In this document: positions 3,145-52,339 of the stretch, piece after piece
How the letters are laid out: each line of letters opens with the position of its first letter
Numbering within the stretch: position 1 is the first letter of the stretch
Source of the DNA: Escherichia phage JES2013
Direction: 5' to 3' (one strand)
Length of the DNA stretch: 64,000 nucleotides
Sequence record: KC690136
Program-made: the position numbers and the translations under genes
Notes under the pieces: model-generated
What the model saw: only the letters and a program-made list of their open reading frames with translations
What the model was told of the DNA's origin: nothing
Databases searched by the model: none

Positions 3145-3906
3145 ATGCGACGACTGATTATTATCTCCGGTGCTGGTTTGAGCGCTGAATCTGGTATTCC
3201 CACTTTCCGATCTGGTAGCACTGCAATGTGGGAGAATTTCAGCATCGATGAGGTGTGCAACATCCACACCTTTGCCAAGAACTACTATAAGGTGCATGAC
3301 TTTTACAATGCACGTCGCGTAGCTCTGGGCAGTGTTGATCCTAACCTTGCACATCTTCGGATCGCTGAGTGGTATTCCCGCTGGTCTGGTCGTGTGATCA
3401 ACCTTACCACCAATGTAGATGATTTGCTGGAGCGTGCTGGTGTAAAACATGAAGATATTTTACATGTCCACGGGTATTTGCCTGAAATCACCTACGAAGA
3501 TGCTGAAGGTAATGATGTAATTAAAAATATCGGATACACGGAGGTAGATACAGGCAAGTATACCTGGGTTAAGCCCAATGTAGTGTTCTTCGGTGAGGTT
3601 GCTCCTAAGTATACAGACATGTATGACCTGTTGACATCTCTCACAAGCAATGATATGGTGATCCTGGTAGGTTGTTCTAACACAGTTATTAATTTTAACT
3701 GGGAATTGTTTCCTGCTACTTGTAAAGGCACAAAACTGCTGATTGTAAACAAGTATGATTCGCAGAGTGCAGATGGAAGTGGCATTTCACGTAGCGACCT
3801 TTATCAATATGAGGATCGCGGGATCCCTGTATGGTTTAACGGTGCTGTTGACGCTTTCTCTGATAAAGTATTTATTGAAACTGTAGAAAACTTTATGGAA
3901 CTTTAA
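3145..3906 (+). CDS. Sir2 family (sirtuin-like) NAD-dependent protein
   Basis: GAGLSAESGIPTFR matches sirtuin GAGxS..GIPxFR NAD-binding signature; TTNVDDL matches TQNID motif. Confidence 0.75.
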   Translation: MRRLIIISGAGLSAESGIPTFRSGSTAMWENFSIDEVCNIHTFAKNYYKVHDFYNARRVALGSVDPNLAHLRIAEWYSRWSGRVINLTTNVDDLLERAGVKHEDILHVHGYLPEITYEDAEGNDVIKNIGYTEVDTGKYTWVKPNVVFFGEVAPKYTDMYDLLTSLTSNDMVILVGCSNTVINFNWELFPATCKGTKLLIVNKYDSQSADGSGISRSDLYQYEDRGIPVWFNGAVDAFSDKVFIETVENFMEL

Positions 3907-44960: not shown

Positions 44961-45185
44961 GGTTTTAACTCCTGTTTCTGTTAATGATTGGAGGCATAAC
45001 CCCCCTCGACAACTCTTATTATCCATATTGTAGGGCTTGATGCAAGTACTTCTTTAAAAAATTTTTAAGTGCCTTGGAGGCCGCTGTAACGCCAAAATAA
45101 TAAAGGCCATGCAACCGCATAGCCTTTATGTGATTATATCGCTGCAGGCCCTGCTAGGGGCCTTATTTTGCATCATTTGCCGGAA

Positions 45186-45494
45186 CTATACAGAGAAAAC
45201 ATCGTTCACAATAGCGATCACAATGCCGCCCACCTTGTCACGGTCAACAATGCACAAATCACCATAGATCATGTGGTAGTCTGGATGATCTTTCACGGAA
45301 TAGTCAATGAGCGTTTTCTTGTCGTCCAGCTTTGTAACTTCCATTCTCATAACGATATGAGAATCATCAAAGGCATTATTCCGAAAAGTCATAGCCTGAC
45401 CACCAGGGCACCCAGTGATCTCCACTTCCACACCGTCTACGATCTGACCATCAAAGAAATAAAGATTATTAGCCAGGATAAACATGTTTATCAC
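45186..45494 (-). CDS. Hypothetical protein
   Basis: 102-aa ORF; AAGGAG SD. Confidence 0.5.
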   Translation of the reverse strand: MINMFILANNLYFFDGQIVDGVEVEITGCPGGQAMTFRNNAFDDSHIVMRMEVTKLDDKKTLIDYSVKDHPDYHMIYGDLCIVDRDKVGGIVIAIVNDVFSV

Positions 45495-45534
45495 TCCTTG
45501 TTAACTGCGTGTTATTTTACCACGATTAAAATTT

Positions 45535-45578
45535 ACTTTACTGATGGCCCTGGCGTCAAGGCCATCTAAAAATAAATT
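45535..45578 (-). promoter_or_regulatory. Conserved 45-bp module, copy 1: palindrome GATGGCC-N10-GGCCATC enclosing TTGACG, then TAAATT
   Basis: Near-identical to copies at 49277-49321 and 49898-49942; abuts upstream stop codon; read on minus strand. Confidence 0.5.
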
Positions 45579-45778
45579 TACAGGCCTACAATCTCTTTGA
45601 TTCGTTTAACTGCTGCCTCAGCGCCTTGGGGGTAGAAATTATGGTAACCGATCACGCGAGTGATACTAATCGCAGTTTGATGATCTTCATAATAGCCCTT
45701 GAAGATTTCTTGACCGTCAATCAGCACGGCAATTTTTTCTTCTTTTTTGAAGTTAATAACGCGGATATTGTTGCTCAT
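45578..45778 (-). CDS. Hypothetical protein
   Basis: 66-aa ORF. Confidence 0.45.
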   Translation of the reverse strand: MSNNIRVINFKKEEKIAVLIDGQEIFKGYYEDHQTAISITRVIGYHNFYPQGAEAAVKRIKEIVGL

Positions 45779-45919
45779 TTTGTTTCTCCTTTCTGGTTTT
45801 TGTGTTGGTGGGGATTAGCTCCCCGTTGATTATTATTATCCATATTTCGGACCGGATTGCAACACCCCGGAAGAAAAATTTTTTGAAAAAGTTAGGCCCC
45901 CAGGGATCGGGGGCCGTTA

Positions 45920-46039
45920 TCAGTTACTTACAGCGATAAAATACATCCCTACGCCTAACAATATTTCAAGGGCGATGATCTCAAGCCATACCATAACCCG
46001 GCGCACCTTATCGGTGCGGGGCTTATCCTTGGTTGTCAT
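45920..46039 (-). CDS. Small membrane peptide (39 aa)
   Basis: sORF MTTKDKPRTDKVRRVMVWLEIIALEILLGVGMYFIAVSN; strong SD AGGGGGAG. Confidence 0.3.
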   Translation of the reverse strand: MTTKDKPRTDKVRRVMVWLEIIALEILLGVGMYFIAVSN

Positions 46040-46281
46040 CGTCTCCCCCTTTCATCCTGGTAGTAGTGACGTGGTTTACAATGGCCCCCAGGAGTACCAT
46101 CACCACGCACATCACAAGAAAAATTATCTCTGTCGTTGTTCGATCCATTGTTATAAAATTCCTTAAGATCAGGCCTGAAAATAAAGCGTTCGTTATTGAA
46201 TCCATCACGCCAGGCGGCTGGCTTCAAATCTTCATCAAAGGGATTAATTAACGTGGTATTATTTAAACGGCTGGCCCACAT
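46036..46281 (-). CDS. Hypothetical Asn-rich protein (uncertain frame)
   Basis: One of two overlapping candidate frames between 46040 and 46258; no motif support. Confidence 0.25.
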   Translation of the reverse strand: MWASRLNNTTLINPFDEDLKPAAWRDGFNNERFIFRPDLKEFYNNGSNNDRDNFSCDVRGDGTPGGHCKPRHYYQDERGRR

Positions 46282-46630
46282 ATTTTCTATTCCTCTCAAA
46301 TAGGCGATCCGCCTCAGTTAAACAAATCTCATGGGCGTGATCTCTGGTTTTAGCTTCATCGAAAACCTGTTGTGCAAGGCTGCAGCGTAGGGAGACTGGA
46401 AGATCACTATAATAGGCGTTGACAAATGTTTGCGCGTCATACAGGTCGGAAAATACTTTACCCTTTCTATTATCGCCTTTGTCAACAATTGCAAGGATAA
46501 CAAGTACAATAGTTGCAACCACCCCCAGGAAAATAGATATAATAAACCATAAAAAGGCGGATCTACCCATCTTGCCAGCGATCCAGGCGTTAAACAAGGC
46601 AACTAATACGGCCAAAATAATAAATTCCAT
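46259..46630 (-). CDS. Membrane protein (two predicted TM helices)
   Basis: FIILAVLVALFNAWIAG and FLWFIISIFLGVVATIVLVILAIV; start refined to ATG after GAGGT. Confidence 0.5.
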   Translation of the reverse strand: MEFIILAVLVALFNAWIAGKMGRSAFLWFIISIFLGVVATIVLVILAIVDKGDNRKGKVFSDLYDAQTFVNAYYSDLPVSLRCSLAQQVFDEAKTRDHAHEICLTEADRLFERNRKYVGQPFK

Positions 46631-46694
46631 TCTATGTACCTCTTTTGCAGTTCTGTTTAACAATAAGGCGGCAAATATGCCGCCTGTTACCTGA

Positions 46695-47075
46695 TTAAAA
46701 ATTATCGCCGTAAATCTTTCCGCTTTCTGCCCACACCACCACGCGGGGCATACTATCCCACACGTCTTGTTTTAGATTGAGCGCGTGCAATTCTTCGGTG
46801 GTGCCCATACCAGGCACGGGCTGATTGTATACTGCAAAACGACCACCTGCATAATCATAGGCCAGGGTTAAATCACACTGAATCATCTTTTTGATCATGG
46901 CGTTGAGCATAGCGTTAGCCGCATACTGGTCACGTTTTAAAGGCAACTCTTTGATTAGTTTGCGATAGTTTTCAATGTGATCGCACACTGTTTCACGTGG
47001 AAGATCTTTCATATCCTCGCGAAAGGTAACCAGGTTAAACATAACGGTGTCAATAGCTTTAGTAGTGTTTTTCAT
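46695..47075 (-). CDS. Hypothetical protein
   Basis: 126-aa ORF. Confidence 0.5.
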   Translation of the reverse strand: MKNTTKAIDTVMFNLVTFREDMKDLPRETVCDHIENYRKLIKELPLKRDQYAANAMLNAMIKKMIQCDLTLAYDYAGGRFAVYNQPVPGMGTTEELHALNLKQDVWDSMPRVVVWAESGKIYGDNF

Positions 47076-47166
47076 AATGTTTTCCTCTTTGTTTTGTGTG
47101 GGGCAAACGTCTTGCCCCCCCTTGAGTTTTAATATAGCAAGTTTTTAGATTATTGCAACACTTTAT

Positions 47167-47790
47167 TTATGAAAAACTCATCTCTCCATATTCATCCACA
47201 TCAAACCGCCAATCATTGGCCTCAATAAGGCCGATCAGGTTTTCGGTAGTGAACTGTTCTAGATAGGCCTCCTCCAGGTCTACGTAAACCTTGCGGGATA
47301 GCTCCCGTACCGTCTCGGTGATCAGCTCTTCCAGGTCTTCCACTTTGTTTTCTTGTTTGGCGGTCAGATCTAGCCAGGTGGTATCAATGTATCCGCTTAC
47401 AGTGTTTTCATGGCTGTAATGGCTGTACTTGTCGCGTTCAATACTGGCTGATAACTCGCCATCGTGCATTGTGCCAAACAAGTGACGAATTGATCGGAAC
47501 TTGGTCAGGGCCTTTACTTTACGCAAGAATTTTTCTAAATCCACGTTTTCAGCACTGATTGACGCGCCGTCACCCTGGCACCAAAAGCCGGACCAATGTA
47601 CATCGGTATCTTCAAGGCCGTACTCTGGAAAAACTTGCTCTTTATAATATTCAATTACACTTTCTGCGAAAAAATCCTCTCCGCTGTGTTCTTCTCTTTC
47701 GCGGACCATTTCAATAGCTTTTTCTTTTTGTTCGTCGGTCAGCACGTCGAAAGATAAATTGCAACCTGTGGTAATGTTAACGGTGGTCAT
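47167..47790 (-). CDS. Hypothetical acidic protein
   Basis: 207-aa ORF; no recognised motif. Confidence 0.5.
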   Translation of the reverse strand: MTTVNITTGCNLSFDVLTDEQKEKAIEMVREREEHSGEDFFAESVIEYYKEQVFPEYGLEDTDVHWSGFWCQGDGASISAENVDLEKFLRKVKALTKFRSIRHLFGTMHDGELSASIERDKYSHYSHENTVSGYIDTTWLDLTAKQENKVEDLEELITETVRELSRKVYVDLEEAYLEQFTTENLIGLIEANDWRFDVDEYGEMSFS

Positions 47791-47819
47791 GATATTTTCT
47801 CCTGTTTTCTTTGTTAGTG

Positions 47820-47838
47820 GCGGGAAGTTTTCCCGCCT
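47820..47838 (-). promoter_or_regulatory. 5'-UTR stem-loop GGCGGGAA-aac-TTCCCGCC between promoter and RBS
   Basis: Perfect 8-bp stem; same architecture upstream of 49664 and 50339 genes. Confidence 0.5.
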
Positions 47839-47847
47839 GTGTTTTTA

Positions 47848-47875
47848 ATTATACTTATTGAGATTTACTTGTCAA
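47848..47875 (-). promoter_or_regulatory. Sigma70-like promoter TTGACA-N16-TATAAT (minus strand)
   Basis: Consensus hexamers on the reverse complement, upstream of 47790 start. Confidence 0.5.
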
Positions 47876-48125
47876 CACTATTTTTTAAATTATTGTGGCG
47901 CAAAATGTTTAAAATCTCTTCAACGTCATCAACACGGCGGCAATTTTTAAACGCTACCAATTGCCCCATGATTTTAATCACTGGGCGGCCTTGCCAGTGC
48001 CCCTGGAGAAAGCGCGCCTTGACTTTATCAGTGGAACTATCACGCCACCAAACGGCCTTGTTATTGCAGTAGTAAAAATTATTCAGGACAATATCAACTT
48101 TATCAAAATTTTTTAATTTACGCAT
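47865..48125 (-). CDS. Hypothetical protein
   Basis: 86-aa ORF. Confidence 0.45.
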   Translation of the reverse strand: MRKLKNFDKVDIVLNNFYYCNNKAVWWRDSSTDKVKARFLQGHWQGRPVIKIMGQLVAFKNCRRVDDVEEILNILRHNNLKNSVDK

Positions 48126-48370
48126 AGTGTTTACTCCTTCCTTCTTGCTTTGATGTGGTTAGTATATCCGGACTATTCCAAGGTGTCAAGCTTTAAATAA
48201 AATCACTGTCAATGATATTTTTAACACCATAAAACGGCCCTGGGTGATGTTTTCAGGCTAAGAAAGGGGATTGCATAGGTAGGGGCTTTTGTGGCGTTTG
48301 TGGGGCCAACCAGGGGCGCTATTCGTAGGATAGAAATAAAAAGCCCCGCACAATGGCGGGGCGTTGGTTG

Positions 48371-48568
48371 TTATTTGTCTTTATGGCGGTATCGTTCCGC
48401 TTGTCGTTCACGTTCCAAAAGTAGGCCCGGCAATTTACGATCATAATGATTCCGCCAGATCTTCCCAAATCTTTTTGGCTTATTCAGTTTATTGTTGCGC
48501 TGGCGGCGTTCCGGCAACTCTTCGGAATCATGAGATCGCTTTACAATTTTCTCAAAATTAATCTTCAT
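48371..48568 (-). CDS. Hypothetical basic protein
   Basis: 65-aa Arg/Lys-rich ORF. Confidence 0.4.
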   Translation of the reverse strand: MKINFEKIVKRSHDSEELPERRQRNNKLNKPKRFGKIWRNHYDRKLPGLLLERERQAERYRHKDK

Positions 48569-48930
48569 ATATTCCCACCCTTGCTAACTTCAATATTGGC
48601 CTGAATCGCCCGGATACGGCGTTTTATAACCTCCTGATCCGTGCAATCGTATCCCCAAAAGTCTACAATTTTCGCGCCGCCAGCTTTTAAGCGGTATAAT
48701 GTTTCTTGCATTTTGTAAGCTGGGATCGGTCGCGGTGTTACCTGGTCGCCTTTTTCATCCTTGTACTTGATTATGTAGTCCTCGTTGTCGTTGAATACCC
48801 AAAAAGGGTACTCTGTAAGGGCGTTGCTTTCTTTTTCGTTTTTAGATTGGATCTTGTTTACAATTAAAGCCGTAGCAATAGCGCCAATAATAAAACTAGC
48901 CCCGCTGATCATGTTACTTTCTCCTTTCAT
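48565..48930 (-). CDS. Membrane-anchored protein
   Basis: N-terminal TM ISGASFIIGAIATALIV. Confidence 0.45.
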   Translation of the reverse strand: MKGESNMISGASFIIGAIATALIVNKIQSKNEKESNALTEYPFWVFNDNEDYIIKYKDEKGDQVTPRPIPAYKMQETLYRLKAGGAKIVDFWGYDCTDQEVIKRRIRAIQANIEVSKGGNI

Positions 48931-48987
48931 TGTGTTGATAAACTATCTTTATAGATGGCCCTGTTACCAGGACCACCGAAAAAATAA

Positions 48988-49233
48988 CTATTTCACAATG
49001 CCTACAAAACAGATCCCGCCTTCACCTATATAGGCAATATCGGTAATTTTATAATTTGTCAAGATCCGCGTGTTCAGATCATTAATAAAATCGGTCATCG
49101 CGTTGGTGTAGTTGTCTTCCGTGTCTAAGGCATAATCCCAGGTGTAAACCTTTTTACGTCCGAAGCCTTTTACCATGATACGGGCGCTTTTGGTGTTGGT
49201 AGGGGCATAATATTTGGTGATTAGTGCTGCCAT
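48988..49233 (-). CDS. Hypothetical protein
   Basis: 81-aa ORF; GGAG SD. Confidence 0.45.
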   Translation of the reverse strand: MAALITKYYAPTNTKSARIMVKGFGRKKVYTWDYALDTEDNYTNAMTDFINDLNTRILTNYKITDIAYIGEGGICFVGIVK

Positions 49234-49276
49234 GGTTTTAACTCCTCTGAATTAGTTCAGTGTTAACAGTATAAAG

Positions 49277-49321
49277 TTTACTTTATTGATGGCCCTGAAG
49301 TCAAGGCCATCTAAAAATAAA
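49277..49321 (-). promoter_or_regulatory. Conserved 45-bp module, copy 2: GATGGCC-N10-GGCCATC around TTGACT, then TAAACT
   Basis: Same element as 45535-45578; abuts stop of 49323..49664. Confidence 0.5.
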
Positions 49322-49322
49322 C

Positions 49323-49664
49323 TTACTCGTTTTCTTCCAGCTCCGCAAGCTCTTCTTTTGCTTCTTCTAACTCTGTCTGTAGTTCCTGGTATTCTTCATC
49401 GTCCTCAATATCCAGGCTGTCGATGTAGTCGCTAAATCCGCAGCGGTAAGCGATAGGATCTAGCTCCTTGAGGATACGCGACGGAAGAAAAGAAATGTTT
49501 CCGATCATAATTTCGCCGTAGATCTCGTCTAACCATTCATCATAGTTTTCGTCGTACTTGTCCTCGTCGATTTCAAAGTTATCGATCTTGTTCTCAAGGT
49601 CTGCGATCTGTTTTTTCAGCGCGGCGATCTGCATAGCTTTTTCTGCGGCGGTCATAGTAGTCAT
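49323..49664 (-). CDS. Hypothetical acidic coiled-coil protein
   Basis: 113-aa ORF; preceded by promoter TTGACA-N16-TATACT and hairpin GGGAA-aac-TTCCC. Confidence 0.5.
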   Translation of the reverse strand: MTTMTAAEKAMQIAALKKQIADLENKIDNFEIDEDKYDENYDEWLDEIYGEIMIGNISFLPSRILKELDPIAYRCGFSDYIDSLDIEDDEEYQELQTELEEAKEELAELEENE

Positions 49665-49743
49665 GGTGTTTTCTCCTTTTGTGTGCTCTGGGAAGTTTTC
49701 CCGTTTACGTGTTTAAGTATAGCGATCTAAGTTAGTTTGTCAA

Positions 49744-49863
49744 TTAAAAATTTAAGAAAAATTTTGCAAAACTGTTAGCGCTACTCATTAACATTTGCGC
49801 CAGGATGTAACCAATGATGCAAACGATAATAGTTACCTTTGTGTGCTGGCGTGTAGTACTCAT
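49744..49863 (-). CDS. Small membrane peptide (39 aa)
   Basis: sORF MSTTRQHTKVTIIVCIIGYILAQMLMSSANSFAKFFLNF; SD GAAAGGGGGG. Confidence 0.3.
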   Translation of the reverse strand: MSTTRQHTKVTIIVCIIGYILAQMLMSSANSFAKFFLNF

Positions 49864-49897
49864 CTTTAAGCCCCCCTTTCCGCTCAACTGTGGTTAG

Positions 49898-49942
49898 TTT
49901 ACTTTATTGATGGCCCTGGAGTCAAGGCCATCTAAAAATAAA
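49898..49942 (-). promoter_or_regulatory. Conserved 45-bp module, copy 3: GATGGCC-N10-GGCCATC around TTGACT, then TAAACT
   Basis: Same element; abuts stop of 49944..50339. Confidence 0.5.
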
Positions 49943-49943
49943 C

Positions 49944-50339
49944 TCAGTACGTTTTCAGTACTTTCCCGTCCAACCTGTCTAACTGAATCTCAATAGCTGC
50001 AGAAAACCTATTGTAAACCACATCGCCCAAGGAGTCCAGCCAATCTATAACGTTATACACCTGCTCTTTATTCTTGCAAGTCCGGATCCGTTTCATTACG
50101 TAAGACGGATCAATATTAGTACTCCCGTTGTTGTGGTCATGCGCCTGGCCTGCTGCACTGGTTATAGATTTTACAACCACCTGAAAGGGCTTTAAGGTGC
50201 CTTTTGCGTTCATCTCACGCGCTTTTGCGGCGCGGTTGTTATATGTTACACAACGGCGGCAAATGTTGAATAAATGCATGTCAATAATTTTTTCATCGTT
50301 TGCCAGTTCGTTCATGATGCGGCGTACGTTCTTATTCAT
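49944..50339 (-). CDS. Hypothetical protein
   Basis: 131-aa ORF; upstream promoter TTGACA-N16-TAAACT and hairpin GGCGGGA-aaca-TCCCGCC. Confidence 0.5.
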   Translation of the reverse strand: MNKNVRRIMNELANDEKIIDMHLFNICRRCVTYNNRAAKAREMNAKGTLKPFQVVVKSITSAAGQAHDHNNGSTNIDPSYVMKRIRTCKNKEQVYNVIDWLDSLGDVVYNRFSAAIEIQLDRLDGKVLKTY

Positions 50340-50422
50340 AGCTTTTCCTCTGTGTTGGCGGGATGTTTCCCGCCTTTTGTGTCTAGTTTACTTGAATTTT
50401 GCAGCGTGTCAATAATTTTTTT

Positions 50423-50821
50423 TTATTCGTGGGCACATGTTACAATGTGCTTTTTATAGCCCAGGTGGGCAGCAAGTGCCGCCAAAAACTCATCTTCATA
50501 GATCCAGCCGTTGGCAGTGATCCCCATAGCATTTAATGCGCTCTCAAGTGCTGCGTTAGCTTTATCATAACCGTGACCGCTCGCCTTGCCGCCAGTATAA
50601 CCGTACTTATTGTTCTTGTTGTCGTGTATCCAAAAAACGCAGTAGTTAGTGTTACCGCTGGCGGCGGCATAGTACCGGATCTCCGCTACTTCGTGCAAAT
50701 TATTATCATCGTCCAGGCCAACCAGATTATAAGCCTTGTAAAATCCACGATCACGGCGGCAGTTCTTGACATCAGAAAAAGAGAAGTCGGCATTGTCAAA
50801 ATTAAAGGTTGTGGTTTTCAT
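50423..50821 (-). CDS. Hypothetical protein
   Basis: 132-aa ORF; upstream TTGACA-N17-TATACT. Confidence 0.5.
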   Translation of the reverse strand: MKTTTFNFDNADFSFSDVKNCRRDRGFYKAYNLVGLDDDNNLHEVAEIRYYAAASGNTNYCVFWIHDNKNNKYGYTGGKASGHGYDKANAALESALNAMGITANGWIYEDEFLAALAAHLGYKKHIVTCAHE

Positions 50822-51323: not shown

Positions 51324-51590
51324 TTTTGTACCTCCCCTTCAATTGTTACCTATCCTATAGCATAGGCCCACCAGGTTTACAAGCCTTCATTCTCTCCTGC
51401 CTGGTCAGTTAGGTCCTGCCAGGCTGGCCCCGCCAGGTTGCAGCGGTTAGCGCATCAGGTTAGAAAAATTTTTTGAAAAGTGTTGACAGCGGCCCCGCCA
51501 GGTGGCACAATATACCTATCGAAAGGACGGCAGGCACCGGTGACGGGGGAGGCAACCACCGGGGATGGACGCTGCATAAAATGAGAACGG

Positions 51591-51735: not shown

Positions 51736-51864
51736 AAAATTCTAAATGAGAACTCCTCGCATTTAATAAATTTAATTAGCATGCTAATTACCCTCCGTAA
51801 CAATTTCCTATAAAACAGTATCCCATAAAATATTTCCATATAGAAATTTTAAAAATCCATTTCT

Positions 51865-52027
51865 GAAAACGAAAAATCGATTTCGTCCCCAAAAATTTCA
51901 GGTCGAGATCCGGAACGATTTCCAGAAAATCCGATTTAGAAAACGAAAAACAGATCGAGTACTGAGAAATTTATCGAGAAAAATTTTCAGAAAATTCAAT
52001 CTTTGAAACGAAAAACAGATCGAGTAC
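51865..52027. repeat. Direct repeats GAAA(A)CGAAAAACAGATCGAGTAC (two near-exact copies plus one degenerate)
   Basis: Copies at 51939-51962 and 52005-52027; degenerate copy 51865-51880; AAATCCATTTTAG also repeated nearby. Confidence 0.55.
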
Positions 52028-52339
52028 CTGGAAAGCTGCACTGCAACTTCAAGATAGTGGTTAGATTATTACCATAAAAGGTCAAGGGTAAGTGGAGGAA
52101 GTTCTAGTAGAAGGATGTGAGCATGTGTGGGAAATCTATAATGGTGGCCTGGAATATGGTGCAAACGATAGGATGAGTTATTCAGCTTGTCGCGCCTACT
52201 CTGAAAAATCCATTTTAGTTTTCGATCCATTTTCTGATTTTCTAAGAATTTTAAAATATCCAGCCCGGTGAAATATCAAAAGGAGGAAATCCATTTTAGA
52301 AATCCCCCTTATACTTGATATGCCAGGAATTTTCAAGTA

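Follow-up and report, generated by a model that had tools for sequence, protein, structure and literature searches.

A four-copy intercistronic hairpin element in Escherichia phage JES2013 and its rV5-like relatives: a candidate PeSL-like cassette

The 64-kb window of Escherichia phage JES2013 analysed here (KC690136; an rV5-like coliphage of the genus Vequintavirus) carries a short repeated element between small genes, in a region that is 93-97% identical to other rV5-like phages by BLAST. The 45-nt consensus of the element, TTTATTTTTAGATGGCCTTGACNNCAGGGCCATCARTAAAGTAAA, is matched with 0 mismatches on the minus strand at 45532-45576 (copy c1), 49277-49321 (c2) and 49898-49942 (c3), and has 0 matches in 100 dinucleotide-preserving shuffles. 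An earlier note on this DNA had described three near-identical 45-bp copies; all three are there, two at exactly the positions given and the first, placed at 45535-45578, displaced by 2-3 nt. Each starts 1 nt past a stop codon (TAA, TAA and TGA, respectively) and is followed by the next ATG 25-45 nt downstream, in agreement with the placement in the note, and the TTGAC(T/G) motif, 18-nt spacer and TAAACT or TAAATT that it had listed are likewise present. The 7-bp inverted repeat GATGGCC/GGCCATC drawn around TTGAC occurs three times (GATGGCC-N10-GGCCATC at 45543-45566, 49288-49311 and 49909-49932, with a chance expectation of 0.17), but its true extent is greater. The inner inverted repeat comprises 10 bp with one G·T (GATGGCCTTG/CAGGGCCATC) and is flanked by an A/T-rich outer repeat of 10-11 bp (AGTTTATTTT/AAAGTAAACT), inside which the '-10' hexamer lies. 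A diverged fourth copy (c4) at 48938-48992, overlooked in the note, has the common hairpin without TTGAC.

The four copies span 4.4 kb of small early ORFan genes of unknown function, and the genes that flank them belong to PHROGs without known function. A scan for promoters and terminators gives three short operons, with the copies and the promoters on the minus strand. The first begins with a promoter-like TTGACA-16-TAAACT (50385-50412; P194 of rV5) ahead of a 131-aa gene (g131, 49944-50339), which is followed by c3 and a 39-aa open reading frame (ORF; g39, 49744-49863). The second is headed by the near-consensus sigma-70 promoter TTGACA-16-TATACT (49716-49743; rV5 P192) and continues with a 113-aa gene (g113, 49323-49664), c2, an 81-aa gene (g81, 48988-49233), c4, a 121-aa gene (g121, 48565-48930) and a 65-aa gene (g65), before an intrinsic-terminator-like hairpin with a T-run on the same strand (48343-48362) closes the operon. 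The third consists of a promoter-like TTGCAA-16-GATAAT (45835-45862), a 66-aa gene (g66, 45578-45778), c1, a 99-aa gene (g99, 45186-45485) and a terminator-like hairpin (45100-45129). Judged by these predicted promoters and terminators, no copy lies outside a short operon, so that read-through mRNA must carry the element.

As sense-strand RNA, every copy folds into a two-tier hairpin with an A/U-rich lower stem of 10-11 bp that begins within the stop codon of the preceding gene, an internal loop of 2/3 nt, a G/C-rich upper stem of 10 bp and a tetraloop. The folding free energy (dG) of the copies in the window is -23 to -27 kcal/mol, with z-scores of -3.5 to -7.1. The c1 hairpin (45529-45579; dG -23.1, z -3.5) has its upper stem at 45543-45566, a -35-like TTGACG at 45554-45559 and a -10-like TAAATT at 45530-45535. 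In c2 (49275-49323; dG -27.1, z -7.1) the upper stem lies at 49288-49311, TTGACT at 49299-49304 and TAAACT at 49275-49280, and in c3 (49896-49944; dG -26.4, z -5.7) the corresponding positions are 49909-49932, 49920-49925 and 49896-49901. The diverged c4 hairpin (repeat family D1, 48940-48990) has the upper stem GGUGGUCCUG-GUAA-CAGGGCCAUC at 48954-48977, no TTGAC and only a -10-like GATAGT/GATAAT. The antisense strand folds 7-8 kcal/mol worse because the G·U pairs turn into A·C mismatches. A covariance model made from 40 distinct copies of the element separates the strands by about 40 bits, with sense-strand scores of 67-84 bits (72.8 for c1, 83.5 for c2, 81.7 for c3 and 66.7 for c4) versus 28-44 bits for the antisense strand.

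Searched with the covariance model, the window and the complete rV5 genome each yield exactly four copies, and neither sequence has anything further that scores up to E=10. The copies in the window are those of the earlier note and the diverged c4. By BLAST, the element is confined to Vequintavirus (119 records, typically with three BLAST-detectable places per genome). In distant phages, the homologs of the upstream gene (47-61% identity) lead directly into the next gene with no hairpin between; the element is therefore an innovation of the genus. A metagenome scan for further orthologous loci returned four loci only, a protein-anchored scan of IMG/VR one close relative. An Rfam search of 45000-50500 reached no family threshold and gave only sub-threshold matches at chance level. 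Neither the 33 promoters nor the 20 terminators listed for rV5 in its genome paper (PMC3606486) include the element, and the GenBank record of phage Gotham has automatic PhagePromoter calls on two of the three copies.

Selection on the hairpin was assessed at the four sites in 17 Vequintavirus genomes, which were picked by BLAST hits and flanking proteins and not by fold. Intact copies across these genomes all fold alike (dG -21 to -31 kcal/mol), at a constant position relative to the stop codon and the Shine-Dalgarno (SD) sequence. Among the 40 distinct sequences, 97.0% of the pair cells hold standard pairs, compared with 36-56% for slid partners and 92.9 ± 0.5% for column shuffles; 0/500 shuffles attain the pairing or the covariation score of the real alignment. 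In the lower stem, four pairs have changed on both sides, namely columns 7/53 (GC/AU/GU), 8/52 (UA/CG), 10/50 (UA/AU/GU/GC) and 11/49 (AU/UA). Since column 53 corresponds to position 5 of the supposed -10, pairing has at least partly shaped that hexamer. In the upper stem, the 5' arm of c4 is GGUGGUCCUG where the other sites have GAUGGCCUUG, a difference of three transitions, each still paired via G·U wobble; nearly every genome has the same 3' arm, CAGGGCCAUC, at all four sites. The c4 hairpin is kept, without TTGAC, in all 16 genomes that have this copy. Altogether the evidence for selection is good, yet not overwhelming, and we consider it very probable that the sense-strand hairpin is under selection.

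The case for a promoter within the same 45 nt is more evenly poised. None of the 41 intact main-type copies tabulated departs from TTGAC or TAAAyT; one diverged copy has TTGAT. Across the 41 copies the 44-nt core is at least 95% invariant except for the covarying lower-stem pair and the last two loop bases, which have minor alleles at 24-27%, while the 'AC' of TTGAC, which forms the first two loop positions, is unchanged. This contrast between fixed and variable loop positions is expected of a -35 hexamer and not of a pure hairpin. An invariant TTGAC/TAAAyT beside two freely varying loop bases makes a weak sigma-70 promoter plausible, and TAAAyT retains T1, A2 and T6, below an AT-rich upstream tract and with suitable geometry to the SD. 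Several facts point the other way: c4 has no -35, one IMG/VR relative has its -35/-10 spacing altered to 15 or 20 nt with the hairpin kept, and strong consensus promoters already head each operon. From the sequence, the embedded promoter may be active, and we give this as much credence as its silence.

These results bear on the two interpretations offered in the earlier note. Its distinct promoter class is only plausible: the hexamers are conserved at three sites, but they match the consensus at 9/12 positions, the '-10' sits in a covarying stem and c4 lacks the -35. The built-in operator finds no support, as the DNA palindrome is imperfect in a strand-specific manner and c4 differs on a single arm. 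The alternative of an RNA hairpin processing site is the better supported of the two, given the hairpin kept at four sites in 17 genomes, the compensatory changes and a layout like that of T7 RNase III sites; cleavage itself is putative, by analogy with T7. The further suggestion that the element marks a co-regulated gene subset was overstated, with four copies per genome, all within 4.4 kb and each inside a short operon.

RNase III substrates have about two helical turns of continuous or quasi-continuous helix, in which cleavage is restricted by internal loops, with a protective 3' hairpin left behind; 11 bp separate the tetraloop from the scissile bond, the distal box is U-A followed by a stringent U·G, and the proximal box is G-C, A-U/U-A, A-U, A-U/U-A, with G/C at pb2 blocking binding (Pertzev & Nicholson 2006, PMC1540722). 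The register for our comparison was set with the published stem-loop AUAAAGGUCAUUCGCAAGAGUGGCCUUUAU (PMC10359600), which lies within the T7 gene 1/gene 1.1 gap and reproduces four numbered facts of PMC1540722. Read down from the loop, µR1.1 has C-G, U-A, U·G, A-U, C-G, U·G, G-C, G-C, A-U, A-U, A-U, and the rV5 element G-C, U-A, U·G, C-G, C-G, G-C, G-C, U-A, A-U, G-C and then the internal loop. The two stems of the element (10 + 11 bp) with the 2/3-nt internal loop between them form a 21-bp quasi-continuous helix, as long as the two turns call for. In c1-c3 the U-A/U·G tandem lies at bp 2-3 below the loop with U on the 5' arm, matching the distal box in place and orientation. The internal loop of these copies begins at bp 11, the scissile position, and pb2 of their proximal box is a permissive A-U.

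Five T7 early intergenic gaps, when folded, show a two-tier plan like that of the element. We take the positions of the T7 RNase III sites to be those of the Dunn & Studier map; the RefSeq record has no such features, and the positions were checked only by folding the gaps. Like the element, sites R0.3, R0.5, R1, R1.1 and R1.3 are intercistronic hairpins in the early mRNA of a virulent coliphage served by host polymerase, with a 9-10-bp upper stem, a tetraloop, an internal loop, a lower stem and about two helical turns in all. Unlike these sites, the element has a smaller internal loop (2/3 nt), lacks U·G in c4, departs from the optimum at pb1 and pb3 and shows no arm-for-arm sequence homology. 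A similarity to the arms of T7 RNase III sites (UGGCCUU) was rejected as homology, the arms being in opposite orientation relative to the loop. By analogy, RNase III may act on the element, a proposal that we hold tentatively.

The closest known kind of element is the promoter-early stem-loop (PeSL) cassette, whose architectural and evolutionary hallmarks our element shares, its promoter being a weak candidate. PeSLs were described in the T4-type phages RB49 and phi1 (Arbiol et al. 2010, PMC2839356) and later extended to other T4-like phages, with PST and nt-1 among the carriers (Comeau et al. 2014, PMC4122927). A PeSL comprises an AT-rich tract containing the stop codon, a promoter of the sigma-70 type, a stem-loop with G-T pairs, found in any of five positions of which one overlaps the -35, and an SD/ATG; their recombination yields indels and mini-circles, and an RB49 PeSL stem-loop cut lacZ expression as much as rrnB T1 (PMC2839356). 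The element, too, is intergenic among small non-essential early ORFans in a plastic region, extends from a stop codon in an AT-rich tract through to the SD/ATG, and has a stable stem-loop with G-T pairs that overlaps the -35. Its copies are near-identical, indel junctions between close relatives fall in them, and several rV5 genes of the region are annotated as similar to RB49 proteins. In contrast to PeSLs, it occurs in Vequintavirus and not in a T4-type myovirus, in four copies per genome versus dozens. Its predicted promoter is weak (9/12, 18-nt spacer) where PeSL promoters are near-consensus, and its long two-tier hairpin also swallows the -10, whereas PeSLs have a short GGGG/CCCC stem. 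As the host is not T4-type, we file the element as a PeSL kind and not as a member of the RB49/T4 sets.

The copies mediate gene loss in related genomes. Hybrids with the upstream flank of c3 and the downstream flank of c2 occur in IMG/VR 2051223002_000007, phiWec189, ECP32 and ime, and these lack 621 bp containing the 39-aa ORF, promoter P192 and g113. Phage 241Ecol014PP, which lacks the 81-aa gene, has a c2/c4 hybrid in which the crossover falls within the CAGGGCCATC·ATAAAG stretch common to both copies. The copies act as crossover points that delete gene modules because they are nearly identical, and they are almost certainly substrates of recombination. The three main sites have the loop variants TC, TT, AC and GC in common, which points to gene conversion from copy to copy. 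Copy 3 of Gotham has decayed, its 3' arm being deleted.

Bacterial chromosomes also contain intergenic palindromic repeats that act in RNA, among them the REP/BIME mRNA stabilisers and the Correia elements of Neisseria, which provide promoters and RNase III sites. Like our element, these are short intercistronic palindromes that fold in mRNA, can carry promoter hexamers and serve as substrates of recombination. They differ in being chromosomal and in having hundreds of copies, and Correia elements are derived from transposons, with target duplications; at the element no sign of transposition was seen. A likeness of the plus-strand loop GCCCUGAAG to lambda boxB/nut was dismissed, as the loop bases differ between copies.

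With moderate confidence, we take the element to be a four-copy family of PeSL-like composite intercistronic cassettes, whose core is a sense-strand hairpin that would uncouple cistrons, most likely via RNase III. Read-through early mRNA from a strong sigma-70 promoter would carry the hairpin, which would set the upstream and downstream cistrons apart. Host RNase III would most likely bind or cut at the internal loop, leaving the upstream message with a protective 3' hairpin, as at the T7 early sites; attenuation of transcription could take the place of this step. In c1-c3, transcription of the downstream gene may start anew from the -35 TTGAC, at the apex of the stem, and the -10 TAAAyT, on the 3' side of the lower stem.

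A number of observations weigh against this account. The upper stem shows wobble switches only and no double changes among the 40 sequences, the covariation amounts to few independent events, mostly between c4 and the other copies and among close relatives, and the near-identity of the copies could stem from gene conversion and not from selection. For RNase III, pb1 is U-A and pb3 G-C, not the G-C and A-U of the proximal box, so that the box is sub-optimal, and c4 has C-G in place of the stringent U·G. The PeSL definition comes from T4-type phages, whose PeSL stem-loops were reported as terminators, whereas the hairpin of the element has no U-tract. The sigma-70 match of 9/12 with an 18-nt spacer is conserved at 3/4 sites but is of a quality that chance often produces: a scan found 62 sites at the 9/12 level or better in 16 kb versus 37 in shuffles, and the stringent promoter search of the rV5 authors did not list the element. 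The literature searched contains no RNA-seq or transcript-level data for any rV5-like phage, and we infer promoter activity, processing and attenuation alike from the sequence.

Other explanations can be set against the same observations. If the element were purely a DNA-level promoter class with an operator, polymerase would use TTGAC-18-TAAAyT, a dimeric protein of phage or host would bind GATGGCC/GGCCATC as a switch and the hairpin would be incidental. The invariance of TTGAC/TAAAyT at three sites, with the sixth -35 position free as in real -35 hexamers, fits such a class, as do the AT-rich upstream tract, the suitable SD/ATG distance and the PhagePromoter predictions in Gotham. It leaves unexplained why c4 keeps the palindrome-derived hairpin in 16 genomes without TTGAC. 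Moreover, the conserved T·G and the three one-arm transitions of c4 break the DNA symmetry and pair only as sense RNA, the outer stem with its '-10' covaries, the IMG/VR relative changed its spacing yet kept the hairpin, the half-site centres are 17 bp apart and so not on one helical face, and the promoter match is only 9/12. We regard this explanation as distinctly unlikely. Attenuation or termination, as proposed for the stem-loops of PeSLs, is unlikely as well; here the hairpin would stop or reduce read-through from the strong upstream promoter and the embedded promoter restart transcription at a lower level. The effect of the RB49 stem-loop on lacZ, similar to that of rrnB T1 (PMC2839356), speaks for it, together with a G/C-rich hairpin right behind stop codons and within operons. 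It is at odds with the lack of a U-tract after the upper stem (AAUAAAG) or after the whole hairpin on either strand (the antisense side reads UAAAAAUAAA), and with a terminator scan that called true terminators nearby and not the element, which the HdK5 annotation and the rV5 terminator list also skip. The specific case of an intrinsic terminator was rejected on these grounds: no U-tract on either strand, and a scan and two published annotations that pass over the element.

A selfish or neutral palindromic repeat, spread locally and kept uniform by frequent recombination and gene conversion in a recombination-proficient phage, would account for there being only four copies within 4.4 kb, for the hybrids, which prove that copies recombine, for loop variants shared among three sites and for the decayed Gotham copy. 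It would not lead one to expect that c4 has diverged with its fold kept by pairing-preserving and compensatory changes, that the 44-nt core is at least 95% invariant while its surroundings differ by 4-7% and variation is concentrated in two loop bases, or that the placement of the element with respect to the stop codon and SD does not vary; we consider it highly unlikely. The hairpin might instead be the operator of a phage RNA-binding protein, either a translational repressor or an endoribonuclease, reading the upper stem and the loop 'AC'. Such a reader would explain why the sequence of the upper stem, and not pairing alone, is invariant, with the 3' arm CAGGGCCAUC identical at four sites nearly everywhere, and why the first two loop bases are fixed and the next two variable. 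However, the neighbouring genes, all ORFans without RNA-binding signatures, offer no candidate, the hairpin does not sequester the SD, which is 20-35 nt downstream, and the c4 loop differs (GNNR). Among the explanations considered, we find this one very hard to credit.

A hairpin of similar plan occurs in temperate Pseudomonas phages. A loose pattern scan of IMG/VR found about 26 contigs with GAUUUCCUC-GAUGGCCUUG-GNRA-CAGGGCCAUC-CGGGAAAC from such phages, and a permuted-stem control pattern matched the same family, adding 66 members, for about 90 IMG/VR contigs. The family is therefore large, and the rV5 stem corresponds to one variant of a covarying frame. In phiPSA1 (3490-3545), Medea1 (3495-3545) and JBD44 (2554-2595; positions in the retrieved loci), the hairpin is single-copy and lies in the leftward early (PL-type) leader, about 400 nt past a TTGACA promoter downstream of cI; in the family it stands 10-30 nt before the first ribosome-binding site. 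Mid-stem pairs covary, with the U-A/U·G tandem fixed; the loop is mostly GNRA and the lower stem UUUCC/GGAAA. An Rfam search of these loci gave nothing but a tRNA. The two hairpins share the two-tier plan, the 10-bp upper stem, the place of the U-A/U·G tandem and U-rich 5' and A-rich 3' lower strands, and in one common Pseudomonas-phage variant the upper stem is identical to that of rV5 (GAUGGCCUUG/CAGGGCCAUC). Unlike the rV5 element, the Pseudomonas-phage hairpin is present once, is far from its promoter and not overlapping it, has a GNRA loop and covaries freely in mid-stem.

Homology between the two was downgraded: the pattern fixed 17 bases, and about 10/41 matches look like chance. As much of the match was imposed by the search patterns, we do not claim common descent. 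The plan they share would fit a constraint common to both, such as RNase III. It is at best doubtful that the 45 nt are dual-coded, acting as DNA as a weak sigma-70 promoter and as RNA as a sequence-specific RNase III-type hairpin (U-A/U·G fixed) of a wider class shared with Pseudomonas PL-leader hairpins, which would make it a conserved host-RNase-III docking or processing module that phages of different hosts set just before early genes. The Pseudomonas-phage family itself is apparently undescribed. Its position recalls the RNase III site of the lambda N leader. Right after the PL-like promoter, phiPSA1 (3160-3245) and Medea1 (3150-3240) also share a near-identical stretch of about 70 nt, CCATCGAGACGCGAAACAGCCCCTCAACAGGCCCAGCGGATCGAACCGCTCTTTA, a candidate leader or nut-like signal.

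Some further features lie in and around the operons that contain the copies. The 65-aa gene at 48374-48568 (minus strand), the last of the c2/c4 operon, encodes a homolog of T7 gp1.1 (Pfam PF08200, E=2e-11, 44.5 bits with a cutoff of 21). T7 gene 1.1 sits directly after the R1.1 RNase III site; we treat the homolog as a curiosity, and it is no evidence for RNase III at the element. The 39-aa ORF after c3 (minus strand), MSTTRQHTKVTIIVCIIGYILAQMLMSSANSFAKFFLNF, is small, hydrophobic and probably membrane-spanning, and the c3/c2 recombinants have lost it along with g113. Repeat family D7, an AT-rich tract (CTAACTTTTTCAAAAAATTTTTCTT and variants on the minus strand) at 45871-45895, 49754-49778 and 51461-51485, lies just upstream of three promoter-like sites and may be an UP-element-like module. 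Repeat family D5 (47822-47875 and 49690-49743, minus strand) combines a consensus promoter, TTGACA-16-TATAAT/TATACT, with a GGGAAAACUUCCC-type hairpin at about +10, such that primary transcripts would start with a 5' stem-loop.

Elsewhere in the window, repeat family D2 (51834-52034) contains three direct but imperfect repeats, each about 62 nt long and set at a spacing of 65-74 nt (...AAAATCC.ATTT..GAAAACGAAAAA...), in an apparently non-coding stretch, and may represent iterons or a regulatory array. Repeat family D6 (247-314) comprises three tandem units of 21-22 nt, each with the palindrome GTCCGTATCACGGAC, and looks like a repeated protein-binding site. Among the GenBank records, 17 within MG065635-MG065682 are labelled 'Campylobacter phage' (host Campylobacter jejuni) and are 93-98% identical to E. 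coli rV5-like phages over the region of the element, so their host labels look doubtful.

The advance is incremental and brings no new principle. The recombining copies provide a concrete mechanism for small gene gains and losses among rV5-like isolates, and a consistent label could be given to four intergenic gaps that over 100 GenBank genomes now leave unlabelled or call 'promoter'. If confirmed, our assignment would extend PeSL-type mobile regulatory cassettes beyond the T4-type phages to the Vequintavirinae, a group in wide use for therapy and typing, and the hairpin would be the first candidate post-transcriptional signal of rV5-like phages, comparable to the early RNase III sites of T7.

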